From the IMG/VR virus record IMGVR_UViG_3300022700_000186: a stretch of 20,000 nucleotides of DNA, one strand, 5' to 3'. The notes under the pieces are model-generated. The model was not told the origin of the DNA. It saw nothing but the letters and a program-made list of their open reading frames with translations, and searched no databases. A program made the position numbers and the translations under genes. The DNA comes from an uncultured virus (IMG/VR IMGVR_UViG_3300022700_000186) (lineage: Duplodnaviria > Heunggongvirae > Uroviricota > Caudoviricetes). Shown here piece by piece: positions 5,842-19,512 of this stretch (position 1 is its first letter; each line of letters opens with the position of its first letter).

Positions 5842-6335
5842 ATAAAGAAGAATTATTAGAAAAAATCCAAAGTCACAACTTCATAGTAATAACAGGTACA
5901 TCTGATGGAAGAAAACAAGTAAGACAGATAGTAAACAGAAATATCCCTAAAAAACGCATAATCGAAACACGAAAATATCCCGAATACATCAAAAATCGAA
6001 AATCGGTTGATTCTTATAACCTCAGTACAGAATCTCCACAACCATACGAAGCATTAATGTCTCTCTTAAAAATACTCGAGAAAAAACGATTACCAGTAAT
6101 CGTAGATTCTTTCACAGATATAAAATCAATATTACGTACTCATGTTCATGGAACAACAAAAAATTGGGTTCACTATAATTTCCTCATTAAAAACTCAATC
6201 ACTACACTTCAAAAATACAACACAAAACTAATATTATTCGTTGATGACGAAGTCATCCACCAACACCTACTATACCTTTCAGATTTAATAATTATAGCCA
6301 ATGATAATGAAACTAAAATCCTAAAGGAGAAATAA
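5838..6335 (+). CDS. Degenerate P-loop NTPase-fold protein (RecA/AAA_24-like), probably inactive
   Basis: FIVITGTSDGRK resembles an eroded Walker A. PVIVDSFTDI is Walker B-like. KLILFVD and YLSDLII match RecA-fold strands. Confidence 0.5.
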   Translation: MNKEELLEKIQSHNFIVITGTSDGRKQVRQIVNRNIPKKRIIETRKYPEYIKNRKSVDSYNLSTESPQPYEALMSLLKILEKKRLPVIVDSFTDIKSILRTHVHGTTKNWVHYNFLIKNSITTLQKYNTKLILFVDDEVIHQHLLYLSDLIIIANDNETKILKEK

Positions 6336-6337
6336 AA

Positions 6338-6706
6338 ATGTCACATTACGATTCCTCAAGATATGGGTATGATAAATACTGCAAATCATGTGGAAAATAT
6401 CTCGGTATGGGTGTATCAAGAGACATCTGCACCACCTGTGAATATTTCAAATTAAAAGAAGATACATTACAAGAAGCAACCATCTATCTAATTTCTGAAA
6501 TAAGATTATGGATATCGGCACACGGGGACGATGTAGAAGAGATAAAGGAAGAATTCAAAGAACCGATTGCTGATTCCCACATTGATGTCTACAAAGTAAT
6601 CGAAGACTACAACGACGAAAAACTACAAGAAAAACGAAACAATGACCCAATGTACAGAATCGAACAACTCGAAAAAAGAATCAAAAAACTCGATGAATCA
6701 CAATGA
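6338..6706 (+). CDS. Zn-finger hypothetical protein
   Basis: CKSC...CTTC; AAGGAG RBS. Confidence 0.75.
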   Translation: MSHYDSSRYGYDKYCKSCGKYLGMGVSRDICTTCEYFKLKEDTLQEATIYLISEIRLWISAHGDDVEEIKEEFKEPIADSHIDVYKVIEDYNDEKLQEKRNNDPMYRIEQLEKRIKKLDESQ

Positions 6707-11387: not shown

Positions 11388-11522
11388 ATGAGAAATCTTG
11401 TAAAAAGAAAAAAAGGATTAATGAGTGACCCACTTGTTAAAAAAAGTAACAAAAAATCACTTTACCGAACAGCCCGAGAAGACATTGACAAAAAATTCAA
11501 AAAGAAGAGGAAAAAGAAATGA
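11388..11522 (+). CDS. Small very basic protein (44 aa)
   Basis: MRNLVKRKKGLMSDPLVKK...; GAGGT RBS; ATGA overlap. Confidence 0.55.
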   Translation: MRNLVKRKKGLMSDPLVKKSNKKSLYRTAREDIDKKFKKKRKKK

Positions 11523-11653
11523 GTATATTCAGTTTATTCAAACCAAAAAAAGTGTTCATAATGCCTTGCCCTCACTGTGGTTGTATAGATGAATACTATG
11601 ATGGCGAGAACACTTGTAAAAAATGTAACAACACATTCAACATCAAAAGTTAA
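11519..11653 (+). CDS. Small Zn-ribbon protein (44 aa)
   Basis: CPHCG...CKKC; followed by a TTTTTCTT tract. Confidence 0.65.
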   Translation: MSIFSLFKPKKVFIMPCPHCGCIDEYYDGENTCKKCNNTFNIKS

Positions 11654-11674
11654 TTTTTCTTCCAAAGCCTTAAA

Positions 11675-11730
11675 TTTAACGAAACTTTTATATACCATAA
11701 AGTATATACATTTTATTGGTGATTGAAAAT
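11675..11730 (+). promoter_or_regulatory. Archaeal promoter/leader B, twin of promoter A
   Basis: CGAAAC-TTTTATATA; perfect dyad TATATAC-N6-GTATATA (11689-11708); GGTGATTGAAA RBS. Confidence 0.8.
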
Positions 11731-12810
11731 ATGACCACAGAAAAACGGAGCAACTTTTCCCTCAAGGAATTGGCGGAGGAGTTGGAAAGGCAGAAACACT
11801 CACGATACGACATCGTAGTCCCCACAGATAAATTGCTCGTTCTTAGAGACGGTAACACCATTAAAATGGATGTTCCTCAACTAGATGGTAATATCAAACA
11901 ACATGGTATTACAGACTGGGCTCATGGGCAGATAGCAAATAAAACAGGAATACCAAAAAAGTATTACGACAAAATGCGTGAAAAAGGTAAACTTGATTTA
12001 CTTGCAAAAAACATTAACACTTGGATGCCCGACCGAGAAAAACGTATGGTACGAGTTCTTGATAACAAAGTACGAGCGTTACTTTCGGATAGATACCGAG
12101 TAATTGATAACTACGATATTCTGTATCTTACACTCAAAAAATTCCGAGAACTCGGTAACAAACGCAACCTTAGCATCAACGTTCTTTCACAGAACCTTAC
12201 CCCGACTAACCTGTATATCAAAGCTACAAGTCCCGATTTATCAGGACAGGTAATGAAATACAAAGGAGAAACCGAACCAGTCGAAGGTGGTTTGATTATT
12301 CAGAACTCCGAGGTCGGAGCAGGTAGTTTTCAGGTTAAACCATTTATCAATGTTTTAGTTTGCACTAACGGTTTAATCAGTGAACAATCATTCAAAAAAG
12401 TCCACATCGGTCGAAGCCTTGGTGAAGGATTCGTTGATTGGAGCAACGATACACTCCGACTTGAAGACGAAGCACTTTGGTCAAAAATCAACGATATGAT
12501 TAGTTCTACATTCAAACCCGAAATATTCCAGAAATGGTTGGATGAAATCAACGATGTTTCTACTACTGAAGTTCCGAAACCAACCAAAGCTGTTGATAAC
12601 ATTATCAAACACTACAATGTTGATAAAGGTTTGAAAGATGATTTACTCGACCAGTTCACAAAACAAGCACCAACACAATGGGGCATGAGCATGGCAGTAA
12701 CACGAATTGCACAAAACGTTGATTCATACGAGAAACAAATCGAAATGGAGAAAATCGGTTCTGAACTTCTGAAAAAGAAAGCAACAAAAATTCTTACGGT
12801 TGATGAATAA
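11731..12810 (+). CDS. DUF932/DUF945-like phage/plasmid protein
   Basis: RALLSDRY-x-IDNYDIL and GLIIQNSEVGAGSFQVKPFINVLVCTNGLI signature; start at ATG 11731 after GGTGAT. Confidence 0.85.
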   Translation: MTTEKRSNFSLKELAEELERQKHSRYDIVVPTDKLLVLRDGNTIKMDVPQLDGNIKQHGITDWAHGQIANKTGIPKKYYDKMREKGKLDLLAKNINTWMPDREKRMVRVLDNKVRALLSDRYRVIDNYDILYLTLKKFRELGNKRNLSINVLSQNLTPTNLYIKATSPDLSGQVMKYKGETEPVEGGLIIQNSEVGAGSFQVKPFINVLVCTNGLISEQSFKKVHIGRSLGEGFVDWSNDTLRLEDEALWSKINDMISSTFKPEIFQKWLDEINDVSTTEVPKPTKAVDNIIKHYNVDKGLKDDLLDQFTKQAPTQWGMSMAVTRIAQNVDSYEKQIEMEKIGSELLKKKATKILTVDE

Positions 12811-12830
12811 TCAACCATTTTTATTTCTTT
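12798..12830 (+). terminator. Hairpin over the stop codon followed by a T-rich tract
   Basis: GGTTGAT-gaata-ATCAACC is a 7-bp stem, followed by ATTTTTATTTCTTT. Confidence 0.5.
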
Positions 12831-12846
12831 ATAGGAGCATGAAAAT

Positions 12847-13317
12847 ATGAGCACAAGAAGTCAAGTAATTATAAAAGATGCATATGATGAACAATGGTTT
12901 TACCGACATTCTGATGGATACCCTTCAGGAAATCTACCACAACTCCAAAAACTAATCAAATGGTATGATGAGGGATTAATCAGAGATAACGTTGAACAGT
13001 CAGCAGGTTGGCTTATCCTAATCGGAGCACGAGAATACGACCATTATCATGAATTCGAAAACGGAAAAGTACGAAAAATCCCAAAAGATGATATCTGCAA
13101 ACCGTCAAAGAAAGACTTATCATCATGGAAATGTGGTTCTTACGAAATTTCCGTTCCTCGAGAACATGGTGATATTGAATATCTTTACATTATCAATATC
13201 GAAGATAAAACACTAACTATCAAAAGAATGTACGATTCAATTGAAAAAACACTATCATGGAAAGAAATCATCAACATGAGTGAAGAAGACTTTAACAAAC
13301 TCGATGGGGGATTATAA
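12847..13317 (+). CDS. Conserved phage hypothetical protein (MSTRS...YxHxDGYP...HGDIEYLY family)
   Basis: Recognisable motif set; AGGAG RBS. Confidence 0.75.
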   Translation: MSTRSQVIIKDAYDEQWFYRHSDGYPSGNLPQLQKLIKWYDEGLIRDNVEQSAGWLILIGAREYDHYHEFENGKVRKIPKDDICKPSKKDLSSWKCGSYEISVPREHGDIEYLYIINIEDKTLTIKRMYDSIEKTLSWKEIINMSEEDFNKLDGGL

Positions 13318-13318
13318 T

Positions 13319-13828
13319 ATGAATGATGGATATATCCAATCAAAACAACGTGAACTTGATGACAAGCTGAATACCATGTTATCGAAAATCGAAATTCTTG
13401 AAAAGAAAACGGAAAACATCGATGAAAAATATGAGCAAATCAATCAACTTCTTGATAGTATCAAAAAGGAAAATAAACACCGAGATAATATCAAACATGA
13501 ACTCGAAAAGGAAACAAAACAAATCATCAATGAAATGGTACCAAAGGTTCAAAATAAAATAAGCAATAGGATTGATAAGAAATTCGATAAACATGAAGAT
13601 TACTTTAATGATAGATTAGGGGATATGCATAAATCAACTACAATGTTGGTAGATGAAACAAAAAGTCTGCTCCAAGCAAAACTTCAGTTAACAGTGCTTT
13701 CTTACCTTCTATACAAACAGGGTATCATTGATAGAAAGGAATTTCACTTAATAGAAAAAATGGATAACGTAAAAGTAACAAAGAACAAAAAAGTAATGGA
13801 TATACTAACCGAAATAAAGAGAATGTAA
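13319..13828 (+). CDS. Coiled-coil hypothetical protein
   Basis: Heptad-like charged sequence; probable start at ATG 13319 after GGGGGA. Confidence 0.75.
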   Translation: MNDGYIQSKQRELDDKLNTMLSKIEILEKKTENIDEKYEQINQLLDSIKKENKHRDNIKHELEKETKQIINEMVPKVQNKISNRIDKKFDKHEDYFNDRLGDMHKSTTMLVDETKSLLQAKLQLTVLSYLLYKQGIIDRKEFHLIEKMDNVKVTKNKKVMDILTEIKRM

Positions 13829-13905
13829 TTGGTGGAAAGGAAGTATGTTTGGTAATTTTTTCATCCCATCCTTAAAAATAGAATATACTTCCCCACAAAC
13901 AATTA
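13826..13905 (+). ncRNA. BHB element 1: predicted splicing-endonuclease substrate, excisable RNA 13838-13898
   Basis: TAATTG-GTGG-AAA-GGAAGTATGTTT ... GAATATACTTCC-CCAC-AAA-CAATTA: 6-bp outer stem, 4-bp central helix, two 3-nt bulges, 12-bp inner stem (2 G-U pairs). Confidence 0.7.
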
Positions 13906-13916
13906 GGTGATAACAA

Positions 13917-14300
13917 ATGAAAATAGCAAACCCAGATAGAGGCTGGCAAAAGTTCCATGATGATATAAAAAAGAAACGGAATAAAAACAAATCCGAACAT
14001 CGTAAACTGCCAACATACGAATCCATTGAATCATACACACCGCAACACCAATCAACACACCAATCACAACCATATCAAACACTACCGCAATCTCCAACAG
14101 TGAACTACAATATCAACCCACCTCAAACCACACAGGGCAACGTCAATGAAAACAAACCAGGACTAGGGTTAATTATCGGATTACTAATTGTTGTTGTTTT
14201 CCTTGCGTTTCTGTTTCAACCAGAGCAAACCATGAACGTATTCCAAACAATCTTTGAACGAATATCAAATTTCTGGTACACAATTAAAGGAGCGATGTAA
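13917..14300 (+). CDS. Membrane-anchored protein with a P/Q/T-rich linker
   Basis: AGGTGAT RBS; basic N-terminus, low-complexity linker, TM helix near the C-terminus. Confidence 0.8.
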   Translation: MKIANPDRGWQKFHDDIKKKRNKNKSEHRKLPTYESIESYTPQHQSTHQSQPYQTLPQSPTVNYNINPPQTTQGNVNENKPGLGLIIGLLIVVVFLAFLFQPEQTMNVFQTIFERISNFWYTIKGAM

Positions 14301-14572
14301 TGTCAAAAATAAAAGTACACGAAAAAGATTGCATCAACCGATTAGGAAAACCTTACACCCATGTACATCGCTTCCTTGACCAATACGCAAAACAGTATCA
14401 CGGTTCAAAACGCCATAGAAAACATTTACATAACAAAAAAGGATTATCAATAATAAAAAATAAATGGGGACAGAAAGCATACCAAGCTGGAAAAATCCAT
14501 TTATGGCGAGACCGAAAGGAGAACAGTAGAGACTACATTATGGCATGGGGAAAGAAGTTTGGTATGTTATAG
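14300..14572 (+). CDS. His-rich DUF6915-like protein
   Basis: H...VHRFLD...RHRKHLH...G...IHL-x2-D pattern; TAATG coupling. Confidence 0.6.
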   Translation: MSKIKVHEKDCINRLGKPYTHVHRFLDQYAKQYHGSKRHRKHLHNKKGLSIIKNKWGQKAYQAGKIHLWRDRKENSRDYIMAWGKKFGML

Positions 14573-14660
14573 GTGCAGATAGGTAGATGATTGAGTTGTG
14601 GGGTTCCGTTTCAATCACCAAATCCTATTTTTTTATCATCTATCCTGCAAAACCTTTAAT
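14566..14660 (+). ncRNA. BHB element 2: predicted splicing-endonuclease substrate, excisable RNA 14581-14650
   Basis: AGGT-GCAG-ATA-GGTAGATGAT ... ATCATCTATC-CTGC-AAA-ACCT: outer stem, 4-bp central helix, two 3-nt bulges, 10-bp inner stem (1 G-U pair). Confidence 0.7.
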
Positions 14661-14671
14661 ATTAAATTTTT

Positions 14672-14686
14672 GAAAACCTTTAAATA
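14672..14686 (+). promoter_or_regulatory. Archaeal BRE-TATA promoter
   Basis: GAAAACC-TTTAAATA; an AAAACCTTTAA copy also lies 24 nt upstream (14649-14659). Confidence 0.6.
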
Positions 14687-14708
14687 AAAAAAGGTACATT
14701 ATGATAGT

Positions 14709-14918
14709 ATCGGAAAAAAGAAGCGAAAACCAAGAGCAAAAATCGGTCCTATTTCAGGAAAGCGTCTTTACACTGCTGAACAGTATCTTAGAATGCCAGA
14801 ATACGAAATCAAAGGCAAACTCAAAAGAGATATAGATGAAATCGAAAGAAAATTCCAGAAACAACAAAAGAAGTTAAAACAAAAATGTAAATCAAAAAAG
14901 AAAAAGAAGTGGTTATAA
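14709..14918 (+). CDS. Basic protein, possible non-AUG (ATC) leaderless start
   Basis: Frame (I)GKKKRKPRAKIGPISGKRLYTAEQYLRMPEYEIKGKLKRDIDEIERKF...KWL* ends in TAATG coupling. The first ATG is at 14793; ATC 14709 is 30 nt after the TATA start. Confidence 0.5.
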   Translation: MGKKKRKPRAKIGPISGKRLYTAEQYLRMPEYEIKGKLKRDIDEIERKFQKQQKKLKQKCKSKKKKKWL

Positions 14919-15079
14919 TGAGAAAATATCTTTTTAGCTTTGGTTCTATTCTATCAGTCATCGGTGCATTAGGAATGTTCATGGTTAAGACAGCAACTAT
15001 GATGCTTGCTCCTTTTATCATTCTTTTAGTAGGATTATTCGCAATATCATTTGGTGGTGATGATTATCGGATTAGCTGA
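14918..15079 (+). CDS. Small two-TM membrane protein (53 aa)
   Basis: MRKYLFSFGSILSVIGALGMFMVKTATMMLAPFIILLVGLFAISFGGDDYRIS*. Confidence 0.6.
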   Translation: MRKYLFSFGSILSVIGALGMFMVKTATMMLAPFIILLVGLFAISFGGDDYRIS

Positions 15080-15497
15080 TACAATCAACGATATGGACCC
15101 GAAACTTAAGCAACTTTTTCAACAAATCCTTACCGTCGTCACTGTTGTTATGATTCTTTACGGAGCAGTAACATTTATTCTATCAATACTTGAAGGAAAA
15201 CCATTAATGTACTGGTTTGGAACTGAACATTTTATAACAACAGTTGTTGTAGTGGTAATCGTTCTTATCTGTAGTAGTATTCTTAGTGGTAAGGAAATCG
15301 TTTTACCAGAACAATTCAAAAAGAAGGAAGGAGAAAAGAAACAATTCAACTTCCCAGATACATGGGGAGTTAATCAGTTTAAAATGAATCAACCAAAACA
15401 AGAACCAAAAACAAAAACGCACGGTTCATGGCGATGCCCAAGTTGTAAAACGTTAGTGATTGGTAATAAATGCCCAAAATGTGGGAAAAGGAGGTAA
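15060..15497 (+). CDS. Two-TM membrane protein with C-terminal Zn ribbon
   Basis: Two TM helices and WRCPSC...CPKCG; the start is uncertain (ATG 15060 or ATC 15066). Confidence 0.75.
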   Translation: MIIGLADTINDMDPKLKQLFQQILTVVTVVMILYGAVTFILSILEGKPLMYWFGTEHFITTVVVVVIVLICSSILSGKEIVLPEQFKKKEGEKKQFNFPDTWGVNQFKMNQPKQEPKTKTHGSWRCPSCKTLVIGNKCPKCGKRR

Positions 15498-18321: not shown

Positions 18322-18658
18322 AAAAGGAAAAAAGAGCTTCAAGGTATACTTTACATACAATCCAGATTTGGTTGATATAATGAAAGACCACGATGGATGG
18401 TATTTTAAAAAACAGAAAGCATGGACTTTTCCAAATAAACGATTCCGTAAAGTATATGATGACCTAAAAGAAGAGGGTTATAAAGTAAATATATCAACCG
18501 AAGTACCAAAACCAAAGAATATCAATGTTGATAAAAAGAAAGAACTAAGGAACAAAGATGTTATTGCTGTCTTTGGTACCTGCAAGAAATGTAAACAAAA
18601 GAACTTTGTTGGCGAAGATGATTTATGTTCAAGATGTAGAAATACGGTGAAAAAATGA
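18278..18658 (+). CDS. HARP-like domain plus C-terminal Zn finger
   Basis: FKVYFTYNPDLVDIMK-x4-WYFKKQKAWTFP; CKKC...CSRC. The start may be ATA 18299 after GGAGGAGAT. Confidence 0.65.
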   Translation: MKLEEIHIQSPVKIKKGKKSFKVYFTYNPDLVDIMKDHDGWYFKKQKAWTFPNKRFRKVYDDLKEEGYKVNISTEVPKPKNINVDKKKELRNKDVIAVFGTCKKCKQKNFVGEDDLCSRCRNTVKK

Positions 18659-18849
18659 AAGTACAAAGCATACATGATATGATTAAAATCAAGGCGGAAA
18701 AATACAAGAACATTAAGGAAATGAAAGACTACGAGGGAGAAATCGAAGCAATAGAATGTTTTGTGGAAAGGGCAATGGAAGATATGATAGATGGGATGCT
18801 TGATATGCTTGATGATGGGTTGATAATTGGTAGAAGGGAAAAATCGTAG
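18655..18849 (+). CDS. Small hypothetical protein
   Basis: ORF track; GGTGA RBS; ATGA overlap. Confidence 0.65.
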   Translation: MKVQSIHDMIKIKAEKYKNIKEMKDYEGEIEAIECFVERAMEDMIDGMLDMLDDGLIIGRREKS

Positions 18850-18867
18850 ACGAAAATTTATTATTGT

Positions 18868-19122
18868 ATGGTCGACCTTACACCAATTATGTTATCAATA
18901 TCAACGCCTGGTGTTGAGGAAGAGGTCATAAATTTTTTGAAGAACAAAAAAGAAGAGAAAGGTAGAAACTTTGTTATTACCGTTCTACGAATGAAGAAGG
19001 AAATTGATACAATGACACCTCAAATGATGGGTCGGATAATGCACAACCTAAATGATAAAGGAATTGTCAGGTGTATCAAAAGGAACGGTCCTCGAATTCG
19101 GTACATAACACAGTTTGATTGA
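18868..19122 (+). CDS. Putative winged-helix DNA-binding protein
   Basis: TPQMMGRIMHNLNDKGIV...RY pattern. Confidence 0.55.
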   Translation: MVDLTPIMLSISTPGVEEEVINFLKNKKEEKGRNFVITVLRMKKEIDTMTPQMMGRIMHNLNDKGIVRCIKRNGPRIRYITQFD

Positions 19123-19140: not shown

Positions 19141-19206
19141 TATACCTAAACTATATACCGTAAACTATATATAGTTATAACCATATATCATGTATTAGTG
19201 ATTGAA
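19141..19206 (+). promoter_or_regulatory. Archaeal promoter/leader C with tandem repeat and palindrome
   Basis: TATACC(G)TAAACTA occurs twice; perfect palindrome AACTATATATAGTT at 19163-19176; GTGATTGAAATGGAAA is identical to 676-691. Confidence 0.65.
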
Positions 19207-19512
19207 ATGGAAACAAAACAAATATCAAAACATGAAGCAGGTCTTAACGAAATAAGCAACGCTGTAAAGAATATGGTTAAAAGGAACATCAAATACGCAA
19301 AAGGTATCTTGATTGAACGAAAAACAGTACATGAAGATACAATACAAATAGATGTTCAATTTGATAATCTTACCGTTTTTATATCAGACCTTAATGATAT
19401 GATTGGGGTACAATCAGTTCATTTTAACCAATATACGAAAAAACTTATTATTGAATTCGTTCTTTGGAAAAATGAAGCAGAACGCATCATAGATAATTAC
19501 AAGGAGGACTAA
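19207..19512 (+). CDS. Hypothetical protein
   Basis: Start at ATG 19207 after GTGAT. Confidence 0.75.
   Translation: METKQISKHEAGLNEISNAVKNMVKRNIKYAKGILIERKTVHEDTIQIDVQFDNLTVFISDLNDMIGVQSVHFNQYTKKLIIEFVLWKNEAERIIDNYKED

Follow-up and report, generated by a model that had tools for sequence, protein, structure and literature searches.

Bulge-helix-bulge hairpins with antisense loops in the operon spacers of an uncultured mobile element with a probable archaeal host

Why should two spacers between the genes of an uncultured, possibly viral element fold into the splice-site motif of archaeal tRNA introns, and what might such a motif do there? The question arises from a 20,000-nucleotide stretch of DNA (IMG/VR record IMGVR_UViG_3300022700_000186; here called the window, position 1 being its first letter), in which a previous sequence-only reading had pointed out two bulge-helix-bulge (BHB) elements outside any tRNA or rRNA and had proposed that the host endonuclease EndA and the ligase RtcB excise them from the viral mRNA. 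Recognition by EndA depends critically on the BHB, which consists of a central helix of 4 bp between two bulges of 3 nt; in tRNA, the first two bases of the anticodon belong to that helix (PMC4090602). We conclude that the two hairpins are selected RNA structures of the + strand and members of a family of coding-strand hairpins located downstream of a DUF932 gene, and that they are very probably real elements at the RNA level. An antisense role for the second of them, whose loop is complementary to ribosome-binding sites of the same DNA, is likely.

Both elements are hairpins of the hBHBh' type on the + strand, recovered by RNAfold as well as by a structural descriptor. Element 1 (13826-13905) opens with the TAA stop codon (13826-13828) of the open reading frame (ORF) 13280-13828; its outer helix of 6 bp joins TAATTG (13826-13831) to CAATTA (13900-13905), its central helix of 4 bp joins GTGG (13832-13835) to CCAC (13893-13896), its bulges are AAA at 13836-13838 and AAA at 13897-13899, and its inner helix (13839-13850 with 13881-13892; 12 bp, two of them G-U) closes a loop of 30 nt. 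Element 2 (14571-14655) starts inside the TAG (14570-14572) that ends ORF 14300-14572, with an outer helix of 4 bp (AGGT, 14571-14574, with ACCT, 14652-14655), a central helix of 4 bp (GCAG, 14575-14578, with CTGC, 14645-14648), the bulges ATA (14579-14581) and AAA (14649-14651), and an inner helix of 10 bp with one G-U pair (14582-14591 with 14635-14644) around a loop of 43 nt. The sequences and positions first reported for the two elements thus held letter for letter, including the start of each at the stop codon of the gene before it. Directly after element 1 comes GGTGA, the ribosome-binding site of ORF 13917-14300, whose ATG stands 11 nt beyond the end of the hairpin; downstream of element 2 there is a TATA-like motif at 14675-14686, and then an ATG at 14701. 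Both hairpins lie in intergenic spacers of one operon, and element 2 seems to mark the end of a transcription unit that apparently opens at the DUF932 gene.

Unconstrained folding of the + strand returned the BHB geometry for elements 1 and 2 as both the minimum free energy (MFE) structure and the centroid, with z-scores of -2.05 and -3.92, respectively, while the - strand folds were weaker (z -1.78 and -2.15). When element 2 was folded with flanks of 100 nt, the full motif was retained. The central helices have exactly 4 bp and are entirely Watson-Crick (GTGG/CCAC and GCAG/CTGC), and the flanking helices, of 6 bp (outer) and 12 bp (inner) in element 1 and of 4 and 10 bp in element 2, exceed the minimum of 2 bp that Marck and Grosjean reportedly set in 2003 for the hBHBh' form. 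The two 3-nt bulges are staggered on opposite strands, each lying 3' of its strand of the central helix, as had been described for this locus; this is the orientation found at the introns of tRNA position 37/38, according to the definition given in PMC4090602.

The hairpins exceed what chance would provide in DNA of this composition. With a strict descriptor (outer helix of at least 4 bp, 4-bp central helix, two 3-nt bulges, inner helix of at least 10 bp, span of at most 120), the window contains two matches on the + strand and none on the - strand, whereas dinucleotide shuffles averaged 0.04 and none of 150 reached two. A looser descriptor (inner helix of at least 8 bp, span of at most 300) gave three matches on the + strand and two on the - strand against 0.76 in shuffles, and very loose descriptors gave hundreds of meaningless matches. 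When ten stretches of the remaining intergenic gaps were folded, they proved no stabler than their shuffles (z from -0.74 to +1.53), so that the two structured spacers among those folded are the two with BHB geometry; a scan of the RNALfold type yielded long branched folds only and was uninformative. Rfam produced no match at gathering score in the window and two chance-level matches only (E 2.2 and 6.1) in 13700-14800. Other identities were considered for the hairpins and rejected: a K-turn, as the pairs after the bulge are Watson-Crick and not G-A; a box C/D RNA, as the boxes are absent; and a tRNA-like RNA, as ARAGORN and Rfam were negative. Elsewhere in the window, a hairpin at 18823-18890 (ATAATTGG..CCAATTAT) has a symmetric 3x3 internal loop and is not a BHB; it extends over both the stop codon of ORF 18655-18849 and the start codon of ORF 18868-19122, which places the next start inside the hairpin.

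Hairpins of this geometry are also present in relatives, although some relatives depart from it. Through an alignment of the DUF932 protein we found 80 metagenome, 19 genome and 76 IMG/VR loci (L-numbers below denote related loci), and we scanned the window together with the 80 metagenome loci, 553 kb in all. Counting as good those 3-4-3 matches that have at least 15 Watson-Crick pairs and at most three G-U pairs, the coding strand had 12 and the opposite strand 4, and five shuffles of the set gave 4, 3, 5, 6 and 0; at 17 or more Watson-Crick pairs the numbers were 8 on + and 1 on -. A control of 1.0 Mb of mostly bacterial-type loci showed no such asymmetry (9 on +, 8 on -; 2 and 4 at 17 or more pairs). 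Among other geometries, the counts on the plus and minus strands were 5/4 for the mirror image, 1/2 for 2-4-2, 2/1 for 4-4-4, 5/3 for 3-4-2 and 2/3 for 2-4-3. The 3-5-3 geometry gave 6/1, five of the six plus-strand sequences being 3-4-3 elements read again; indeed, A-runs allow all 3-6-3 and most 3-5-3 matches to re-read the same elements. For the 3-3-3 geometry, where one pair fewer was required, the counts were 11/6, and the second of two hairpins in L014 (L014b) is a convincing variant among them.

At least nine further 3-4-3 hairpins are present in DUF932-related elements, on the coding strand and between genes, with stems that show no sequence likeness to one another. The clear members are those of L001, L002, L005 (identical in L007), L014, L023, L025, L026, L029 and L046, of which L005 and L023 carry more than three G-U pairs and so fall outside the good count, and three weak A-T-rich matches within that count (at 2568 in L007, and in L051 and L071) are probably due to chance. 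Each of the 12 elements examined is flanked by ORFs of the + strand, and no + ORF runs across any of them; relative to the end of the upstream ORF, ten begin from -8 to +8 nt and the other two at +30 and +57 nt. The family core consists of A-rich bulges and of a G that comes first in the 5' strand of the central helix in 11/12. The first pair of this helix is G-C in 5/12, G-U in 6/12 and C-G in 1/12, and because a G-U pair is paired only in the + strand RNA, these six cases fit an RNA on the + strand only. They uphold the initial remark that the G-U pairs favour the + strand.

Cases anchored by sequence bear on compensation in the stems. Element 1 and the element of L002 have a common core, with outer helices TAATTG/CAATTA and TGATTG/CAATCA, and unrelated 12-bp inner helices. 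Element 2, L023 and L030 have in common GCAG..CTGCAAA and a 16-nt loop motif, again with unrelated inner helices, and wherever the family has this loop motif on the + strand (3/3 copies), a hairpin of the same type encloses it. In IMG/VR, the motif has 64 copies, mostly at ordinary gene starts, and none of the 64 is inside a strong BHB. Chance matches to the conserved core sequence had an inner helix longer than 4 bp in 0/117 cases, as compared with 10-13 bp in the three family members. Three MAFFT alignments of the elements placed the helices out of register because the loops vary, and the proteins of 13280-13828 and 14300-14572 have no close relatives in IMG/VR. In DNA contigs of 4 runs, a strain that is ~92% identical has both elements, unspliced, and none of the contigs skips either element (contigs show presence, not absence). 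At the elements of this strain, where we read indels only, the outer helix of element 1 has indels after 13826 and 13827 and has lost 13903, which is readable as a compensated TATTG/CAATA, and element 2 has lost 3 nt of its T-run.

Two further hairpins of the relatives may be mentioned here. In L029, a strong hairpin at 6046-6154 has BHB geometry on the opposite strand (the mirror on the coding strand), ~100 nt downstream of the coding-strand BHB of that locus. In L037, a hairpin at 6451-6507 (= L038 8352-8408) pairs the ribosome-binding-site-like GGATGTGAA with TTCACATCC and has two staggered 3-nt bulges around a 3-bp helix; it contains TTTTTCACATCC, a 12-nt antisense of the DUF932 leader of L037.

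What, then, do the hairpins enclose? The window has 32% G+C, an A-rich + strand and nearly all of its plausible genes on that strand. The loops of the family, unlike the remaining + strand, are pyrimidine-rich, and their opposite strand reads as a ribosome-binding site, a spacer, an ATG and A-rich codons. The loop of element 2 carries a module directed against translation-initiation regions (14604-14621, +; TTCCGTTTCAATCACC, common to L023 and L030), within which 14609-14621 is the exact complement, over 13 nt, of 11716-11728, the ribosome-binding site of the DUF932 gene (11731-12810, +; PF06067, phrog_1362; our anchor for the related loci), 2.9 kb upstream; site and ATG (11731) together occupy 11716-11733 (+). 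The part 14604-14618 pairs over 15 bp, one of them G-U, with the leaders at 676-690 and 19198-19212, which belong to a second copy (675-690, +, ATG 685) and a third copy (19197-19212, +, ATG 19207) of the conserved leader AGTGATTGAAATGGAA. The complement of the 16-nt loop motif is the leader (A/T)GTGATTGAAATGGAA, which recurs at many + strand gene starts of the family, and the A/G difference in the loop motif still pairs with the U of AUG, as A-U or G-U.

To assess how specific these matches are, we paired each predicted excised piece with the DUF932 start of its own locus in RNAduplex and with 200 shuffled targets. The own start beat at least 195 of the 200 shuffles in 8/12 elements, and for L001, L014a, L025 and L029, the four whose leader is unique, it was the best of 10 targets. 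The leader of DUF932 is different in L001, and the L001 loop matches that different leader over 13 nt; the L025 loop matches its own start over 19 nt with one bulged base, and that of L029 with two indels. In L014, two bulged hairpins stand in tandem in one spacer (1719-1820 and 1824-1910), with loops antisense to adjacent parts of one DUF932 start, the one from ribosome-binding site to ATG and the other (L014b) to codons 2-6. Exact antisense copies of the own start of at least 13 nt were present in 5 of 62 distinct loci, compared with 18 of 3288 mismatched locus pairs. As judged by these comparisons of sequence, the putative regulator and its target covary across the relatives. The loop of element 1 also reads, on its opposite strand, as a ribosome-binding-site-like sequence and an ATG (AAGGATGGGATGAAAAAA).

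Beyond the module just described, the 3' part of the element 2 loop (14622-14638, AAATCCTATTTTTTTAT) is complementary, without mismatch over 17 nt, to codons 2-7 of a small L030 gene (11158-11174, ATGAATAAAAAAATAGGATTT); no gene start in the window matches ATGAATAAAAAAATAGGATTT, and 14622-14638 may be a second antisense module with a target beyond the window. We also observed that several + strand genes of the window, and genes in many of the related loci, are preceded by a repeated cassette made of a TATA-like box, the leader (A/T)GTGATTGAAA and an ATG. In the window it occupies 638-690, 11683-11733 and 19162-19212, with a weaker form at 1660-1673; the starts are ATGGAA at 685 and 19207 and ATGACC at 11731. 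Genes with this cassette look like a co-regulated set.

The source of the DNA is a mobile element, either a virus or a plasmid. Searches of Pfam, PHROGs and NCBIfam with 30-33 ORFs named only an ATP-dependent ligase, DUF932, DUF2085 and DUF7831. No Terminase_6N or HK97-capsid Pfam match was obtained in three IMG/VR relatives, two of which are complete, with 31-33 kb and direct terminal repeats; the phage DNA collection contained no match to the window, tRNA genes were absent from the window and 38 related loci, and perfect tandem repeats of the kind seen in Borgs were not found. The ligase is minimal (264 aa, 1815-2609; the adenylation domain alone is recognised), and homologues of it lie on contigs of up to 182 kb that also have a DUF932 homologue, so that some relatives may be large elements. 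The ORF between the two hairpins (13917-14300) has a 12-nt imperfect tandem repeat (ACACCAATCAAC, 3.3 copies) in its low-complexity part at 13978-14094, and the ~92% identical strain swaps 13979-14093 for 100 different letters, which marks a hypervariable stretch.

The host is probably an archaeon, to go by homologues and promoter-like motifs. The DUF932 protein has 301 homologues, among which the sole informative label is a Methanomicrobia metagenome-assembled genome (MAG; 45% identity), and its best locus in a species genome is that of a Thermoplasmatales MAG (38%). Motifs of the AACCTTTATATA type stand 15-48 nt before three gene starts and fit archaeal TATA boxes. Thus, AACTTTTATATA at 11683-11694 (+), 37-48 nt before the DUF932 ATG, resembles an archaeal-type promoter, and AACCTTTAAATA at 14675-14686 (+) lies 15-26 nt before the ATG at 14701, which would make the next unit probably leaderless. 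No EndA domain was detected in the 30 window ORFs scanned, nor in the IMG/VR record of locus L100, and EndA is assumed here to be an enzyme of the host.

To account for both the closing stems and the loops, we propose an explanation in two layers. The closing module, with its canonical BHB, would serve as the structure-only recognition signal of archaeal EndA, and the pyrimidine-rich loop would be antisense to a translation-initiation region (ribosome-binding site, spacer, AUG and first codons), usually that of the DUF932 gene that opens the same operon, plus those of other genes with its leader. The hairpin would form on read-through transcripts, and host EndA would cut past the second nucleotide of each bulge, a rule that we take from PMC4090602, thereby freeing RNAs of 61 nt from element 1 (13838-13898, +) and 70 nt from element 2 (14581-14650, +); both predicted pieces start with AGGWAG, as had been noted before. 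RtcB would reseal the mRNA and probably circularise the freed piece, which would then pair with the initiation regions and damp the translation of DUF932 and the leader-sharing genes. An unexcised hairpin could damp the same targets in cis. Because the loops are antisense to translation starts of their own element, the excised piece has a likely job, and because the loop T-runs complement the A-rich codons after the ATG, most of these runs are accounted for. As a whole, this combination of BHB closing module, antisense loop and excision by host EndA stands, in our judgement, at an even balance. Taken singly, cleavage by EndA in vivo is a prediction that we hold by a small preponderance, and a circular product seems to us somewhat less likely than not. 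It is a rather unlikely, broader generalisation that archaeal mobile elements program host EndA and RtcB to carve small, probably circular antisense RNAs from their own operon spacers; since each RNA would copy, in inverted form, the ribosome-binding site and initial codons of the lead gene and of other genes with its leader, a finished operon transcript would, on that generalisation, shut off early-gene translation as a built-in timer. The same EndA cuts, if they occur, would also punctuate the polycistronic mRNA.

Several observations weigh against this two-layer explanation. With regard to the folds, element 1 in a 271-nt sequence (100-nt flanks) loses its weak A-U outer helix to long-range pairing in the MFE structure, while its central helix, 5' bulge and inner helix are still formed, and the A-run after CTGC in element 2 also permits a register with a 5-bp helix. 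Several elements of the family permit registers of 4, 5 or 6 bp, and the outer helix of L023 is too weak for the MFE structure. In L030, the closest relative of the L023 element, the fold shows a helix of 5 bp and a 1x1 loop, and the BHB register contains a U-U mismatch beside the 3' bulge; the central helix of L014b has 3 bp; L048 is non-canonical, with two bulges on one strand; and the antisense hairpins of L004, L035 and L042 are plain or have a 1x1 loop, with no BHB. Moreover, because the descriptor demands pairing, the pairing seen in the family is not independent evidence, and only the controls and the sequence-anchored cases count. With regard to the loops, 4/12 elements have no significant match to the DUF932 start, the number of shuffles that were as good being 35/200 for element 1, 32 for L002, 105 for L005 and 104 for L026. 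No target of element 1 was found in the window, and it probably lies beyond it; a 20-mer search matched element 1 alone, and in a genome-wide RNAduplex scan with this element the stem sequences dominated and made the scan uninformative. Exact antisense matches of at least 11 nt numbered 23, modestly above the reversed (16) and complemented (7) controls, the excess being modest because the sequence is low in complexity. With regard to the host, the archaeal assignment rests on the labels of homologues, among which Bacillota come next at ~33%, and on promoter-like motifs that are not enriched: AAMYTTTWWATA with 1 mismatch occurs 10 times where 10.95 are expected, and only its placement before gene starts is suggestive. 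The T6 and T7 runs in the loops (13856-13861 and 14628-14634), finally, could still stop some transcripts early.

The rival that we take most seriously, because some relatives lack the BHB, is that antisense hairpins act without EndA. The loop would pair with the DUF932 start either in cis, within one long mRNA, or in trans once ordinary RNases have trimmed the RNA, and the bulges would be inherited within the repeat family or be the site of another protein. The hairpins of L004, L035 and L042, and the relaxed ones of L030, L014b and L048, would be as expected under this rival, which also retains the antisense relation, the better supported of the two layers. It has to explain why the 3-4-3 geometry shows enrichment whether it is compared with other bulge geometries, the opposite strand, shuffles or bacterial-type loci, and why that geometry is retained while the stems change completely. 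If the host is archaeal, EndA recognises the BHB shape wherever it is present (PMC4090602, PMC7714728). Antisense action without EndA appears to us unlikely, though with an appreciable share of the probability.

It is much less probable that the hairpins are gene-end terminators or mRNA-stabilising structures whose bulges arose by chance. Such a function would suit their start at a stop codon, the T6 and T7 runs of the loops, and the promoter-like motif and T5 run after element 2. An intrinsic terminator, however, has a G+C-rich stem, a short loop and a direct T-run, and here the loops have 30 and 43 nt, a terminator scan flags neither element, and GGTGA and the next ATG come immediately after element 1 (GGTGATAACAAATG), with no T-run; nor does chance account for two exact 3-4-3 geometries, the family or the antisense loops. 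The sequence-only reading had cautioned that the T-runs might terminate transcription; early ends can still occur there, but most of the runs complement A-rich first codons. The only + strand terminator-like site in a scan of 11500-15200 is a stem-loop GGTTGATGAATAATCAACC followed by ATTTTTATTT at 12798-12826, overlapping the end of the DUF932 gene.

Since the loops resemble gene starts when read backwards, they might be the true starts of small - strand genes to which the hairpins belong. Most loops do offer, on the - strand, a ribosome-binding-site-like sequence, a spacer of 4-10 nt and an ATG, with frames of 12-33 codons (longer in L005). The frames are nevertheless unlikely to be genes because they are short and their peptides are not conserved, and because the start position has ACG in element 2 and no ATG in L002; in L025 there is a 1-nt insertion after the ATG relative to the target, L014b covers codons 2-6 only, and nearly all genes are on the + strand. 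We regard this reading as highly improbable. A role at the level of DNA, as an inverted repeat for protein binding, recombination or replication or as a small mobile repeat with no function in RNA, might be suggested by a family that is repeated and limited to intergenic DNA, but it is scarcely probable given that the G-U pairs, with which the central helix opens in 6/12 elements, would turn into A-C mismatches in the opposite strand and in cruciform DNA, that the strand bias is 12 to 4, that the - strand folds are weaker and that no DNA contig in the 4 runs skips either element (which shows presence, not absence). The terminator, - strand gene and DNA-level readings all fit the data poorly.

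If the broader generalisation is true, these RNAs would represent the first splice-site-defined class of regulatory RNA of an archaeal virus or plasmid; we found no paper that describes a BHB element, or an antisense cassette of this type, in a virus or plasmid of archaea, in agreement with the sequence-only reading, which knew of no described viral system, but our search covered few subscription journals and leaves absence unproven. If the predicted processing is true, archaeal mobile elements would borrow the tRNA-splicing enzymes of their hosts for making regulatory, possibly circular, RNAs, there would be a natural design rule for such RNAs, and the purpose of BHB introns outside tRNA would become directly testable. 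Even without EndA, a covarying, same-strand antisense copy of the first ribosome-binding site of an operon is an unusual regulatory layout.

In bacteria and phages, antisense RNAs and anti-Shine-Dalgarno hairpins mask ribosome-binding sites. The elements described here resemble these RNAs in exposing a loop that can pair with the ribosome-binding site and start codon of a target; they differ in that the putative regulator, an inverted copy of its target, is encoded on the same strand farther down the same operon and is framed by an archaeal splice-site motif.

Among archaeal systems, the closest comparison is with HVO_1309 of Haloferax volcanii, where a BHB intron lies in the 5' untranslated region (UTR) of an mRNA, is cut by recombinant Haloferax EndA and has been found as a circle (PMC7714728). 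There, as here, a BHB-bounded piece of similar size (46 nt in HVO_1309) is located in an untranslated part of an mRNA and leaves the reading frames intact. That intron, however, is chromosomal, single and in a 5' UTR, whereas the present elements occur two per operon between genes of a mobile element, belong to a family and have antisense loops, and their processing is a prediction. Outside tRNA and rRNA, the EndA substrates named in the same account are two mRNAs, cbf5 and HVO_1309, and neither excised piece is given a known function in it (PMC7714728). The cbf5 pre-mRNA of Crenarchaeota likewise has a BHB although it codes for a protein, and its intron is taken out by the enzymes of tRNA splicing (Watanabe 2002, via PMC7714728; PMC2738675), but that intron interrupts the reading frame, and its removal is needed for the protein, while the pieces here are intergenic. 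The intron of archaeal tRNA-Trp shows that a BHB-bounded interior can be functional: it is a box C/D guide RNA, freed and circularised by splicing (PMC4090602, PMC12558985). It differs from our elements in residing in a tRNA and in its C/D boxes, which guide 2'-O-methylation; the elements here are in mRNA, have no C/D boxes and no Rfam match, and are predicted to pair with ribosome-binding sites. The processing stems of archaeal rRNA operons also resemble them, as a BHB there punctuates a polycistronic transcript and circular intermediates arise (PMC12558985, PMC7714728), but those stems are long-range helices around 16S and 23S rRNA and not local hairpins of 80-85 nt. BHB-derived circles are described from rRNA and tRNA introns, as are circles without a BHB (PMC12558985). 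What appears to be new, then, is a BHB motif that frames a sequence with an obvious predicted job, namely pairing with ribosome-binding sites, and that does so in a mobile element and repeatedly across its relatives.

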